Assembly: GCA_048407585.1 (NCBI GenBank)
Contig: DBFNNF010000264.1
Location: 1-32,301 of the forward strand
Direction: 5' to 3'
Source of the DNA: Lactobacillus johnsonii
GTDB lineage: Bacteria > Bacillota > Bacilli > Lactobacillales > Lactobacillaceae
Length of the DNA stretch: 32,301 nt
Positions within the stretch are counted from its first letter, which is position 1. Each line of letters opens with the position of its first letter. Positions 994 through 6,513 of this stretch are shown here, piece after piece. Position numbers and translations under genes: made by a program. The notes under the pieces were generated by a model that searched no databases, was not told the origin of the DNA, and saw nothing but the letters and a program-made list of their open reading frames with translations.

Positions 994-2022
994 ATGACAA
1001 AGGAAATTTTATTAACTGGAGATAGACCAACCGGAAAACTTCATATTGGTCACTATATTGGCTCTTTAAAAAACCGTGTAAAATTACAAAATGAAGGTAA
1101 ATATGACCCTTATATTATGATTGCGGACACTCAAGCACTAACTGATAATGCTAGAGATCCTGAAAAAATTAAGAATAGCTTAATTCAAGTAGCTTTGGAC
1201 TACTTAGCTGTTGGACTAGATCCTGAAAAGTCTACTATCTATGTGCAATCACAAATCCCTGCTCTTTTTGAATTAACTGCTTATTACATGGATTTGGTAA
1301 CAGTTGCACGTCTAGAAAGAAATCCAACTGTTAAAACTGAAATTAAGCAAAAGAACTTTAAGGATTCAATTCCAGTTGGTTTCTTAAACTATCCAGTTTC
1401 TCAAGCAGCAGACATTACTGCTTTTAAAGCAACAGTAATCCCAGTTGGGGATGATCAAGAACCAATGCTTGAACAAACTAGAGAAATTGTTCGTACTTTT
1501 AATAGAGTTTATAACACTGATATTTTAGTTGAACCAAAGGGTTACTTCCCACCAAAGGGACAAGGTAGACTTCCAGGTTTAGATGGAAATGCAAAAATGT
1601 CTAAATCACTTGGAAATGCAATTTACTTGTCTGATGATGCAAAGACTGTACAAAAGAAAGTTATGTCAATGTACACGGATCCAAACCATATTCATGTTGA
1701 AGATCCTGGTCAAGTAGAGGGTAATACTGTCTTTACTTATCTTGATGTTTTTGCACCAGATAAAGATAAGGTGGCTGAACTTAAGGAACAATATCAAAAA
1801 GGTGGCTTAGGGGACGTTAAAATTAAACGCTACTTGAATAAGGTTCTTGAAGAAGAACTTGGGCCAATTAGAGAGCGTAGAGAGAAGTTTGCTCAAGATC
1901 CAGATGCTGTATACGAAATGTTACTAGAGGGATCAAAGAAGGCAAATGAAGTTGCTAACCAAACTTTACAAGAAGTTAGAGAAGCAATTGGTTTAAATTA
2001 TTTTGATAGGTTAAATAAATAA
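994..2022 (+). CDS. trpS: Tryptophan--tRNA ligase
   Basis: [13 protein letters not shown] and KMSKS class I motifs; [13 protein letters not shown]. Confidence 0.98.
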
Positions 2023-2041
2023 TTTAAAGAGGGTAAGACTG

Positions 2042-2530
2042 ATGACAAGAGACAGGATTCCGTGGAAGCAATATTTTATGATGCAGGCGTTAGTTATTGC
2101 ACAGCGCTCAACTTGTGACCGGGCCTTAGTGGGAAGTGTGTTGGTCAAGGACGACCGGATGATTGCCACTGGTTATAATGGAAGTGTTTCTGGACAACCT
2201 CATTGTGATGACGTTGGTCATTTAATGGTTGATGGACACTGTGTTAGAACTATTCACTCGGAAATGAATGCCTTAATCCAGTGTGCTAAAAACGGTATCT
2301 CAACTGAAGGTACTGAAATCTATGTGACTTATTTTCCTTGCTTTAATTGCAGCAAATGCTTAGTTCAGGCTGGTATTAAGAAAATTAACTATTATTATGA
2401 TTATCATGATAATCCGTTAGCACTCAAGTTGCTGCGTGAAAAGGGTGTGGCGATTGAACAAGTAACGCTAGATCATAAATATGTTCAAAGCTTAGCTGAC
2501 AGGTTAGAGAAGGCGGATAATGAAAAATAA
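2042..2530 (+). CDS. comEB: ComEB-family dCMP deaminase
   Basis: Zinc-binding HSE...PCxxC (HSEMNAL, FPCFNC) plus RSTC.R..VG and GYNG motifs; N-terminus 'RIPW.QYFM.QA' typical of ComEB. Confidence 0.85.
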
Positions 2531-3107
2531 GTTTATCAGTTTTGGAATACTCTTGATTTCCTTTTTACTATTTACTGCTAGCACAACTTCTTTTGTTAGT
2601 GATCCGCAAAATTTATTTAATAACCAAACTAAAGAGTTAGTAACTCAAAAAAATAAAGAATACCAAAAAACAAAAAATAAACCTGAAATTCGACTTTTAA
2701 GTCTAAAAAATAGTAATGACATTAATAAAATTAGACCGATGAAAAATCAGATAATTATTGTAGCTGCGTTACAAAATAAAAGAAAAAATGTTCAAATTCT
2801 TGTTGGTAAAAATTACCAAGATGTTTTGGCACAAAACAAGTGTAGCAACATTATCCGATATGCAGGTGATAAATTACGAAGCGAGAAAAAAACAACTTTC
2901 AACTCAGGGATTCGATTAGTTTTTAATGCCTGTGCAACTTTAATTGCCCAAAAAGATAAGTTATCTTATGATAAAAATTCTTTGACGCAAGAAGAGTTAC
3001 AAAAAATTGATCACCCACAAAGTGTAAGTTTAGTTTGGGGATTAGTGATTGCAGCTTTAATTAGTTTTGGATTAGTTTTATTCAAAAGCACGCGAAAGCC
3101 ACATTAG
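2520..3107 (+). CDS. Membrane-anchored protein, TPM (DUF477)-like domain
   Basis: N-terminal hydrophobic signal or TM, C-terminal TM, and segments FVSDPQNLF...PEI and IIIVAA...RKNVQILVG resembling TPM-domain motifs. Overlaps the comEB stop. Family call is by eye. Confidence 0.55.
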
Positions 3108-3111
3108 GGGC

Positions 3112-3140
3112 TTGACTAAATGCTAGTTAGCCGTTAAAGT
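3112..3140 (+). promoter_or_regulatory. Sigma-A promoter for the M-box leader
   Basis: TTGACT (3112-3117), 17 nt, TAAAGT (3135-3140). Confidence 0.65.
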
Positions 3141-3167
3141 ATCAATAGAAATTAAATATGAGAGCAA

Positions 3168-3333
3168 ATAAACTGTTAGGTGAGACTCCTACGTGAACAC
3201 ATGCTGTCGCCCAGCAACATCCAGAGATGCCAACGGGTCAAACAGGGATCGTCGATATAAGGCCCTCCCCAGCCAGCTAGTTATATTTTTATAACCTTAC
3301 GTCACGTAGTGTTAAAACTGAACGACGAGTATA
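3168..3333 (+). ncRNA. M-box (ykoK leader) Mg2+ riboswitch aptamer
   Basis: Conserved ykoK blocks in order: GTTAGGTGAGACTCCT, GCTGTCGCCCA, GCCAACGGGTCAA.CAG, TCGATATAAGG, AGTGTTAAAACT.AACG. CTACGTGA (3189-3196) pairs with TCACGTAG (3302-3309). Upstream of an MgtA-like gene. Confidence 0.93.
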
Positions 3334-3349
3334 AAAATCGCTTGGATTT

Positions 3350-3380
3350 AAGCCGATGCAGTTTTTGCATCGGCTTTTTG
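3350..3380 (+). terminator. Riboswitch expression-platform terminator
   Basis: AGCCGATGCA-gtttt-TGCATCGGCT followed by TTTTGTTTGTTT, between aptamer and ORF. Confidence 0.9.
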
Positions 3381-3415
3381 TTTGTTTGCTAGGTTCTTAA
3401 GAAAGGATGTTGAAG

Positions 3416-4438
3416 ATGTTAAAAATCAACACTTCCGGCAAAAGACATACTACAGACACCAAGCTGGTGCGCCGGATTGCATGCGAAGATAAATTTGCAA
3501 CACTGCAACGATTAAAAACCTCAATTAGTGGCCTTCAAACTAAAGATGCGAGGCAACGCTTAGCAAAAAATGGTCCTAACGAAATTGTAAATAAACCTAA
3601 AAGTACTAGACTTCAATTTTTATGTGAAGCATTTATGACACCTTTTACAAGTATTCTTTTAGGCTTAGCAATTGTATCTATTATGCTTAACTATAAACTA
3701 AAAGTTCATAATTTAGATACACCTGTTTTAATTATTTTAGTTTTAGCTATTTCTGGAATGTTAAGTTTCATTCAAAATATTAAGATTAGAGCAGCTATTC
3801 AAAATTTACTACATAAAATATCGCCGACTACTAAAGTTATGCGTGACTGCACGCCACAAGAGTTGGCAACTAAGGAGTTAGTGGCTGGGGATATTATCTT
3901 GTTACAAGCTGGAGAAGTGGTTCCGGCAGATGTAAGAATTTTAAAGAATAATAATATAATTTGTTCAGCTGATTTCTTTATGGATGAAGATAATCCAGTA
4001 TATAAGAGTGAAATTACTTCTTTAGGTCAGAGAAACAATCATGGTTATGTAGACTATTCAAATATTTTATACGCAGGTACAAGAATTATCTCTGGTTCTG
4101 GAGTTGGAGTAGTATTTGCGACTGGAAAAGAGACTATTTTTGGAAAATTGGCTCAAAATATTTCCAAGATGGAATTAAAGAAACACGTATTTAATTTAGA
4201 TACCAGAAATTTAACAAGAGTATTTTTAATTCTAGCTGCAGTTATTGTTCCTTTGTTTTTAGTAATTAGTAGTATGATGCATGGCAACTGGGAAAATACT
4301 TTAGTATTTGCTCTTGCAGTAGTTGTCGGATTAACCTCTGATGCAGTTCCTATTTCTATCACTAGCCAATTACTAAAAAATTCAATTCACCATCCGAGTA
4401 ATAGCATGGTAATGAAAAAACAAAATCAATCTAACTAG
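3416..4438 (+). CDS. Truncated, catalytically degenerate MgtA-like P-type ATPase (N-terminal domain, actuator domain and TM1-4 only); pseudo-enzyme or pseudogene
   Basis: GL....A..RL...GPNEI, LVAGDIILLQAGEVVPADVR and GT.I.SG.G.GVV.ATG..T.FG motifs are present. The ORF stops before DKTGT. Start 3416 chosen for spacing from the AAAGGA RBS (the track gives 3407). Confidence 0.85.
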   Translation: MLKINTSGKRHTTDTKLVRRIACEDKFATLQRLKTSISGLQTKDARQRLAKNGPNEIVNKPKSTRLQFLCEAFMTPFTSILLGLAIVSIMLNYKLKVHNLDTPVLIILVLAISGMLSFIQNIKIRAAIQNLLHKISPTTKVMRDCTPQELATKELVAGDIILLQAGEVVPADVRILKNNNIICSADFFMDEDNPVYKSEITSLGQRNNHGYVDYSNILYAGTRIISGSGVGVVFATGKETIFGKLAQNISKMELKKHVFNLDTRNLTRVFLILAAVIVPLFLVISSMMHGNWENTLVFALAVVVGLTSDAVPISITSQLLKNSIHHPSNSMVMKKQNQSN

Positions 4439-4466
4439 GAATTTCTAAAAAAGAAATTCCTTTTTT
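4437..4466 (+). terminator. Intrinsic terminator directly after the truncated ATPase
   Basis: AGGAATTTCT-aaaaa-AGAAATTCCT-TTTTT, overlapping the TAG stop. Confidence 0.8.
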
Positions 4467-4485
4467 AGTACACAAATTTATATAG

Positions 4486-6512
<2,027 letters not shown>

Positions 6513-6513
<1 letters not shown>

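Follow-up and report, generated by a model that had tools for sequence, protein, structure and literature searches.

A 32,301-nt stretch of Lactobacillus johnsonii DNA (hereafter the window, whose numbering is used for all coordinates) contains a unit at 3112-4467 on the forward strand in which an M-box riboswitch precedes an open reading frame (ORF) for little more than the front third of the P-type Mg2+ pump MgtA. P-type ATPases are among the best-studied membrane enzymes, and a gene for part of one raises the question of whether it is a pump gene in decay or has been kept for something other than pumping. The original prediction for this locus had favoured the latter, describing a catalytically dead, repurposed membrane protein. 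Comparative analysis revealed that the short gene is under purifying selection, about fourfold weaker than that on the working pump, and we consider it quite likely that it is a selected gene encoding a functional protein that does not pump.

Pfam recognised two domains in the short protein, PF00690 (Cation_ATPase_N, residues 31-91, E 1.8e-13) and PF00122 (E1-E2_ATPase, residues 138-319, E 6.7e-29), and gave no hydrolase, P-domain or N-domain match. The score against the MgtA model TIGR01524 was 185.1 bits versus a cut-off of 610.75, with profile positions 19-327 of 867 matched, and that against PRK15122 was 189.8 bits versus a cut-off of 975, below the equivalog level. The best solved-structure matches were the MgtA chains 9zlk and 9ejn (phmmer E 1.2e-45), with an alignment that spans residues 43-358 of the 921-residue chain, and the short ORF breaks off at a position corresponding to MgtA residue ~358-361, some 10 residues short of DKTGT. 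Alignment to these chains bore out the motif replacements that had been read from the window: MDED stands for TGES in the dephosphorylation loop, SDAVP for PEMLP at the ion site of transmembrane helix 4 (TM4), and QN for QE in TM2. An AlphaFold2 model of the short protein alone (66-row alignment; pLDDT 82.3, pTM 0.76) showed N-terminal helices, TM1-TM2, a beta-rich actuator (A) domain, TM3-TM4 and a disordered tail, with four TM helices only, and its top Foldseek match was again MgtA (9me9, 32% identity), followed by other type II/III pumps. Judged from its sequence, the short protein cannot hydrolyse ATP or pump, because it has no P or N domain and no TM5-10 and because both the TGES loop and the TM4 ion site have degenerated. 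Public records nevertheless name it 'magnesium-transporting' or 'cation-transporting P-type ATPase', and once hypothetical protein; the 'transporting ATPase' label cannot hold for it and calls for caution in annotation.

The truncation is shared by a group of species. We surveyed all 99 species-level genomes of the genus, scoring an MgtA-like gene at E <= 1e-55, and found such a gene in 97 of them and the truncated gene, at the same locus, in 18. In 16 genomes the open frame is 333-348 aa long and 55-100% identical to the window protein, and in the other two (G016 and G105) a 343-aa short gene shows about 38-39% identity. All 18 loci share the order trpS, dCMP deaminase, TPM-domain membrane protein, M-box, short gene and metG, and all 18 short genes have a homologous ATG and a homologous end point (...N-stop) followed by a hairpin and a T-run. 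When the clade was defined independently of the short gene, by a metG identity of >=96%, it comprised 17 genomes, and every one of them carries the short gene; genomes with metG at <=90% have a full-length gene beside metG, except G105 (metG 84%), which carries the short form. The truncation point and the M-box are thus conserved across relatives, and the rest of the pump is absent from the locus as predicted, metG beginning 98 nt past the short-gene stop. At the four syntenic full-length loci examined, the stop, a similar hairpin and a metG promoter-like box lie behind the full-length gene. Because this 3' layout is the same, one internal deletion of ~570 codons would have joined the short gene to the ancestral terminator, and the terminator that now overlaps the short-gene stop is probably that of the former mgtA.

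By public labels, the window type is L. johnsonii, the type 56% identical to it L. gasseri/paragasseri, the 78% type L. isalae and the 38% type L. hominis, and the database clusters of intact copies hold 486, 271, 74 and 11 member sequences. A search of the representative library returned 93 proteins at E <= 1e-30, among which the only close ones were P0010 (gasseri-type), P0051 (hominis-type), the 543-aa P0020 and a paralogue fragment; further matches of 300-400 aa in that library were not distinguishable from contig-end fragments. The short family therefore appears confined to the johnsonii/gasseri/isalae/hominis clade. A quick maximum-likelihood (ML) tree placed the 18 short genes together with P0020 on one side (SH-aLRT 87), and the internal branches of the short clade were long, 0.29-0.9 versus mostly 0.05-0.3 among full-length genes.

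Between johnsonii-type and gasseri-type genomes the flanking genes are 96-100% identical at the protein level, and the short gene only 54-57%. Because the short gene is so much more diverged than its neighbours, its divergence could be used as a test of neutral decay. In the short ORF, 4.7% of single substitutions would create a stop, and pairs of short genes differ at 210-473 positions; neutral drift would therefore be expected to leave 10-22 stops per pair, and the probability of finding none is 5e-5 to 2e-10. The remaining two frames of each short gene hold 27-42 stops, and the coding frame is open over 331-346 codons in all 18 species-level copies with a common end point, without the scattered breaks of a pseudogene. 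The ratio of nonsynonymous to synonymous divergence (dN/dS, NG86) was 0.17 (CI 0.12-0.25), 0.16 (0.11-0.25) and 0.12 (0.08-0.17) in three independent shallow contrasts (95% intervals from 200 bootstrap replicates), with bootstrap maxima of <=0.37. Deep contrasts gave 0.24-0.40, with dS saturated there, and within-clade contrasts of the flanking genes gave 0.00-0.09. Codon ML with a single ratio (GY+F3X4, fast mode, 8 sequences per group) yielded an omega of 0.107 for eight short genes. A ratio near 1 had been named beforehand as the mark of a remnant, and the observed values are far from it. We consider it unlikely that the gene is a slowly decaying relic, that is, a redundant syntenic mgtA that was truncated and whose open frame and riboswitch persist by chance or through weak selection against toxic fragments: a frame of the same length in 18 of 18 genomes is at odds with 10-22 neutral stops per pair, and the low shallow ratios and the retention of the gene in 17 of 17 clade genomes also speak against a relic. 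Other findings, taken up below, fit that explanation better.

Purifying selection acts on a changed set of positions. We took 36 alignment positions conserved at >=85% in 49 full-length homologues and compared them with 8 representatives of the short family. Twenty-one of the 36 are identical in all 8, distributed as 5/5 in the N-terminal segment, 3/4 in TM1-2, 11/18 in the A domain and 2/9 in TM3-4, and the lost ones map to the L-T-G-E loop (191-194), to the TM4 P-E-x-L-P motif and to G325, which agrees with the earlier proposal that structural positions were kept and catalytic ones lost. Within the TGES loop, T192 is kept in 3/8, G193 in 4/8 and E194 in 6/8 short representatives, versus 86-100% in the 49 full-length proteins, and the site reads MDED, TNEG, LGEE or TGQA/TGQN depending on the sub-lineage; such drift is expected, because no phosphoenzyme is left to hydrolyse. 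In the TM4 motif, P311 remains in 2/8 and E312 in 3/8, versus 100% and 92%. We further compared amino-acid identity by region between 5 deep short-short pairs and 29 full-length pairs below 70% identity (the pairs share lineages and are not independent). It was 0.74 in the short family versus 0.40 in full-length pumps for the N-terminal 58 residues, 0.34 versus 0.61 for TM1-2, 0.49 versus 0.73 for the A domain and 0.39 versus 0.77 for TM3-4. Consistently, short genes have a lower dN in codons 1-58 than in the remainder, whereas 7 of 8 full-length pairs show the opposite, and of 17 residues fixed in the short family and rare in full-length pumps, 11 lie at positions 10-50. The alignments indicate that the constraint profile is changed and not uniformly relaxed, because relaxation would flatten the profile and the observed one is inverted; this, too, is hard to reconcile with a decaying relic.

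The same profile bears on the idea that the TM1-TM4 bundle, perhaps as an oligomer, is a passive pathway that leaks Mg2+ or another cation when Mg2+ is scarce. The model for such a function is S1T, a set of truncated splice variants of human SERCA1 that, according to parts of the report describing them, cannot pump, homodimerise and raise Ca2+ leak from the endoplasmic reticulum (Chami et al. 2001, PMC2192035). As far as that source describes it, S1T is cut just past M4, keeps the A domain and M1-M4 and lacks the P and N domains and M5-M10, as does the short protein, and one variant is without part of M1-L1/2-M2, recalling the short-gene alleles in which TM1 and TM2 are fused. However, S1T arises by alternative splicing of an intact eukaryotic gene, whereas the truncation studied here is fixed in the genomes of a bacterial clade, bears a riboswitch and has long been under selection; S1T also retains the TM4 Glu and TGES, and dimerisation and leak have been demonstrated for it. 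A leak function is possible by this analogy but fits poorly with the weak TM conservation and the loss of the TM4 motif, and we regard it as quite unlikely. At the TM4 ion site, 7 of the 8 representatives do have an acidic residue (D, D, D, D, G, E, E, E across the eight), the M-box predicts induction at low Mg2+, and CorA is the sole recognised Mg2+ transporter in two carriers, all of which would suit a cation pathway. Against it, conservation is lowest in the TM hairpins (0.34 and 0.39, compared with 0.74 in the N-terminal segment), most lineages have lost the PExLP motif by which the ion site is shaped, alleles fusing TM1 with TM2 occur, and full pumps, from what is described of E. coli MgtA (E331, N706, N734, D738), also need residues of TM5, TM6 and TM8 that are absent here.

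Conservation at the 5' end of the gene is visible in the nucleotide sequence as well. Identity between clades is 93-97% over 3377-3551, covering the RBS (ribosome-binding site) and the first ~48 codons (~145 nt of coding sequence), and then drops to 45-75%; dS is 0.08-0.27 in codons 1-58 versus ~0.3-1.4 in the remainder of the short gene. Candidate causes are an RNA-level constraint, recombination together with the M-box block, or translation control. The conserved 5' coding sequence folds no better than its shuffles (minimum free energy z-score -1.0, 34 of 200 shuffles as good). A structured RNA element there was also considered and set aside: in the alifold analysis, two-sided changes affected 7 of 57 pairs, mostly in the known terminator. 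An extreme form of the RNA-level view would make the protein irrelevant, the unit being kept for a role in cis or as RNA, for example Mg2+-dependent read-through into metG or a regulatory RNA made of the leader and the first ~145 nt of the ORF. It would draw on the 93-100% nucleotide identity from 3116 to about 3551, on synonymous divergence 4-6x lower in codons 1-58 than beyond them, and on the modest downstream terminator (3 GC pairs) with metG only 98 nt away. We judge it highly improbable, given that amino-acid constraint extends across the whole ORF (in shallow contrasts, omega is 0.08-0.28 for the A domain and for TM3-4) and that a 340-codon frame is open in 18 genomes; moreover, metG has its own conserved promoter-like box, also at full-length loci, the 5' coding sequence shows no unusual folding, and a weaker 5' dip in dS, ~2-fold, is present in full-length mgtA genes too.

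The riboswitch is retained along with the short gene. The M-box scored 134-135 bits at every short-gene locus scanned, and its nucleotide identity is 90-100% even to the hominis-type clade, the most distant one. In a census of M-boxes and Mg2+ transporters in five genomes, three had a second M-box ahead of a genuine MgtA, which scored 986-991 bits with TIGR01524. The remaining two, G022 and G016 (100% and 99% complete, respectively), had no MgtA above the TIGR01524 cut-off, their best proteins scoring 423-427 bits and belonging to another subfamily, and each had exactly one M-box, the one before the short gene. CorA was found in all five genomes examined, and MgtE was absent from all five. The near-invariance of M-box, terminator and RBS, even in the two species where they serve no other gene, is a further point against a decaying relic.

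In the genome of the window, a full-length paralogue lies on another contig (G000:C33:6804-9557; 918 aa, 985.9 bits, versus 183.7 bits for the window gene) behind its own M-box. The paralogue reads NGES instead of TGES (SLNGESSPVEK), as does the database protein P0021, and its DKTGT and PEMLP are intact. The search for a full-length mgtA or a complementary half thus returned the former and not the latter: tblastn with the C-terminal 573 residues of the paralogue detected no orphan C-terminal half in this genome. A split-gene reading was accordingly rejected, since the tblastn matches on C33, C135, C57, C169, C19 and C288 all belong to full-length P-type ATPases; further matches on C56, C121 and C52 are open frames of 824, 642 and 631 aa. 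A reading in which the short protein is a partner of MgtA was weakened by the two carriers without MgtA and by the E. coli MgtA dimer interface, which is reported to lie in the N and P subdomains that the short protein lacks. As a separate observation, a P-type ATPase outside the MgtA subfamily is split into 377 + 530 aa in one genome (G013:C1:1664070-1666636) and is intact at 907 aa in G022 (1508227-1510818).

Several findings weigh against a selected, repurposed protein. In the region shared with the short gene, omega is 0.025 in eight full-length paralogues, making the constraint on the short gene ~4x weaker (eight syntenic full-length genes gave 0.011, a value from saturated data with a tree length of 56.6), and between clades the gene body has 45-75% nucleotide identity versus ~80% for the genome background. 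Only four lineages are involved, and related ones do not count as independent. Some of the N-terminal conservation is seen at the nucleotide level and may reflect RNA-level constraint or recombination rather than protein function. Broken alleles exist: among gasseri/paragasseri-type sequences, frameshifts remove TM3-TM4 in P0214 (267 aa, on 5 contigs of up to 240 kb) and P0216 (257 aa, on 4 contigs), and in-frame deletions of 4, 5, 5, 20 and 23 residues occur, the larger ones fusing TM1 and TM2. The short gene is dispensable in at least some strains, since loss-of-function alleles segregate. The grouping of P0020 with the short clade fits a history of decay as well as one of repurposing. Twelve RNA-Seq runs from three studies contain the stretch, and in the four examined it lies in contigs of 9-20 kb that span the full 2.5 kb compared and are unable to show specific transcription, transcript ends or induction.

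The alleles were read in 40 of the 271 members of the gasseri/paragasseri-type cluster, a sample from which no frequency is derivable; one further member, P0218, lacks the last six residues. In the window-type cluster, 15 members are listed from the 40 read of 486, and these are 340 or 343 aa long except for one 192-aa fragment, the longest contig for which is 730 nt. In P0020 and its companion P0244 (543-546 aa, 43% identity, contigs of <=3.9 kb), unrelated residues stand in place of the DKTGT region and part of the N domain is left, and catalytic death may have preceded or accompanied truncation, with these proteins as a possible intermediate stage.

Several of these findings would fit a decaying relic. 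Most carriers have a redundant full-length MgtA under M-box control, the short gene evolves ~4x faster than the paralogue on long tree branches, gasseri-type strains carry frameshifted and TM-fusing alleles, P0020 has no DKTGT, and ordinary broken or truncated mgtA genes occur elsewhere in the genus (303 + 598 aa in G020, 277 aa in G018). The claim that the gene was repurposed and is not decaying is supported by the species-level record, with the same end point in 18 of 18 genomes and dN/dS of 0.12-0.17, and is qualified by the broken alleles of some gasseri-type strains. Likewise, full-length or variably frameshifted copies at this locus, which would have spoken for a remnant, are absent from the clade genomes, 17 of 17 having a short, open gene; frameshifted forms appear at strain level in P0214 and P0216.

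The two broken genes elsewhere in the genus are distinct cases. In G018 (L022, G018:C2:117100-122400), an independent, non-syntenic M-box (134 bits) precedes a 277-aa N-terminal MgtA fragment (gene at ~2020-2850, reverse strand) that ends in or just past the A domain, sits on a branch of 0.86 and has no C-terminal remainder at the locus. That genome also has a full-length MgtA, and the database proteins P0023 and P0024 (263 aa, ~1-kb contigs) group with the fragment, perhaps a pseudogene of the ordinary kind, perhaps a second instance of truncation. In G020 (L024, G020:C34:20000-25000), the mgtA in the syntenic slot, at 1759-4439, is split into 303 + 598 aa by one TAA behind an intact M-box (130 bits); this has the look of an ordinary gene breakage or of a misassembly, in a genome that is 51% complete.

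Around the short ORF, every feature that had been read from the sequence beforehand was found at its stated place, as located by Rfam, a pattern scan and the ORF list (Table 1). A promoter-like site is present at the expected position, but the scan gave 3 such matches versus 6.7 +/- 2.5 in shuffles, so that the match alone is not above chance. Support for the promoter comes from its conservation and not from the consensus match: across clades in which neutral sites have reached saturation, 3116-3155 still shows 93-95% identity. The M-box match (E 1.3e-30) covers model positions 1-169 of 169 and hence the whole aptamer. Terminator-like sites numbered 2 in the pattern scan versus 1.0 +/- 0.9 in shuffles, and the leader hairpin is retained in 6 of 6 aligned lineages, with one pair altered on both sides in 2 sequences. 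The RBS stretch GAAAGGATGTTGAA is invariant in the same number of lineages (6/6). The true start is more likely the second ATG, because the first overlaps the RBS; the representative of the largest database cluster also begins at the second Met and has 340 aa. The unit thus carries every sequence feature of an M-box OFF-switch gene. Downstream, the box TGCTATG(A/T)TATACT was present in 8 of 10 intergenic regions examined (6/6 short loci and 2/4 full-length loci).

Table 1. Features of the M-box unit and of its downstream boundary, in window coordinates
Feature	Position	Strand	Evidence or detail
Promoter-like site TTGACT-17-TAAAGT	3112..3140	+	Consensus scan, 9/12 matches
M-box (Mg2+) riboswitch aptamer, Rfam RF00380	3165..3337	+	135.4 bits vs gathering score 44
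Leader intrinsic terminator (expression platform)	3350..3386	+	Hairpin 3350-3376, 12 pairs, 6 GC, then T-run
RBS GAAAGGA (AAAGGA 3402-3407) and probable start ATG 3416-3418	3401..3418	+	Read from sequence
Truncated MgtA homologue ORF	3407..4438	+	343 aa from first ATG, 340 aa from ATG 3416; stop TAG 4436-4438
N-terminal segment, residues 1-58, most conserved part of the short family	3407..3580	+	
Degenerate dephosphorylation loop, MDED for TGES	3980..3991	+	Alignment to MgtA 9zlk/9ejn
Degenerate TM4 ion-site motif, SDAVP for PEMLP	4337..4351	+	Alignment to MgtA 9zlk/9ejn
Terminator on the stop codon	4437..4467	+	Hairpin 4437-4461, 10 pairs, 3 GC, and T-run; begins at second base of TAG
metG promoter-like box TGCTATGTTATACT (extended -10), boundary marker outside the unit	4489..4502	+	Conserved box
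metG	4537-6513	+	MAEKK start at 4537, 98 nt past short-gene stop

Directly upstream, at 2520-3107 on the forward strand and outside the riboswitch unit, lies a gene for a 195-aa TPM-domain (PF04536) protein with hydrophobic ends, which accompanies the M-box-mgtA slot at most syntenic loci, short and full-length, and has a within-clade dN/dS of 0.05-0.09. At gathering thresholds, Rfam reported just two RNAs across the window, the M-box and a reverse-strand tRNA (151-221), and no T-box leader in front of trpS (994-2022) or metG (4537-6513).

On balance, we favour the explanation that the short gene is a domesticated mgtA remnant whose product would act as a low-Mg-induced, non-pumping, membrane-tethered actuator module. 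In the common ancestor of the johnsonii/gasseri/isalae/hominis group, a single internal deletion of ~570 codons in the syntenic mgtA would have taken the region from just before DKTGT to the gene end and joined codon ~340 to the old mgtA terminator, leaving promoter, M-box, leader terminator and RBS untouched. At low cytoplasmic Mg2+, the M-box would let transcription pass the leader terminator, and the predicted product would be a ~38-kDa membrane protein in which two TM hairpins (TM1-TM2 and TM3-TM4) flank the A domain, preceded by the N-terminal segment and followed by a short disordered tail. The specific mode of action can be suggested only tentatively. The protein may act through a cytosolic module in which the N-terminal segment packs on the A domain, the four TM helices serving mainly as a membrane anchor, because TM conservation is low and in-frame TM1-TM2 fusions are tolerated in some strains. 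It might then be a low-Mg-induced regulator or adaptor of another membrane process, neither an ion path nor a subunit of MgtA. Independence from MgtA is proposed because two carriers have no MgtA and because the E. coli MgtA dimer interface, in the sections of the study describing it, lies in the N and P subdomains, the TM domains not being involved (10.1101/2024.02.28.582502). A broader proposal, which we put forward as speculation and consider doubtful, is that the protein is the founding member of a bacterial class of pseudo-pumps and that at low Mg2+ it would target some other membrane machine in trans, for instance CorA, a different P-type ATPase or the ATP synthase, to rebalance the Mg2+ or ATP economy. 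Its newly constrained N-terminal 58 residues would be the business end, and in L. isalae and L. hominis the protein would be the sole output of the only Mg2+ riboswitch.

Compared with known systems, the short protein is closest to MgtA (type IIIB; E. coli/Salmonella 8uy7-8uyc; Gram-positive 9ejn, 9me9, 9zlk), to which it is homologous over the N-terminal segment, TM1-4 and the A domain. Its gene has the kind of M-box leader that also precedes full-length mgtA in the genus and occupies the chromosomal slot of the syntenic mgtA of related species. However, it comprises ~340 of ~900 residues, with no P or N domain, no DKTGT and no TM5-10, with degenerate TGES and PExLP motifs and with an inverted constraint; without the N and P subdomains, it cannot use the dimer interface reported for E. 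coli MgtA. Parts of the same E. coli study describe the N-terminal tail of MgtA as packing under the A domain, propose a regulatory role for it and mention the binding of a small protein as a regulatory feature (10.1101/2024.02.28.582502). With the M-box (ykoK) Mg2+ transporter genes of Firmicutes, the unit shares the full-length aptamer, the intrinsic terminator and an ORF of a transporter family, the M-box also being detected in the control genomes of B. subtilis and L. lactis; it differs in that its product is not a recognisable transporter and that, in two species, it is the only M-box-regulated gene. In enterobacteria, MgtC, MgtR and MgtS are non-transporting membrane proteins induced at low Mg2+ that adjust the Mg2+ economy via other proteins. 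The parallel with the short protein would be a functional analogy only: there is no sequence or structural relation, their control is by PhoPQ and leader peptides versus the M-box, and they belong to another phylum.

We found no description of such a truncated MgtA or P-type ATPase or of an mgtA pseudogene, including in the M-box and Lactobacillus literature, at title and abstract level and with subscription journals not covered; the only stand-alone front half of a P-type pump that we found described is the human SERCA1 splice form S1T. The short gene shows that part of a pump is retained under purifying selection in a clade made up of commensals of the gut and vagina and of probiotics (the L. 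johnsonii, gasseri, paragasseri, isalae and hominis types). If the gene is functional, it would mean that the A domain and TM1-4 of a P-type ATPase can fold and work alone, and it would represent a new kind of output for M-box regulation. It would also offer a simple genetic handle on Mg2+ limitation in these bacteria, cleanest in the two species that have no MgtA.

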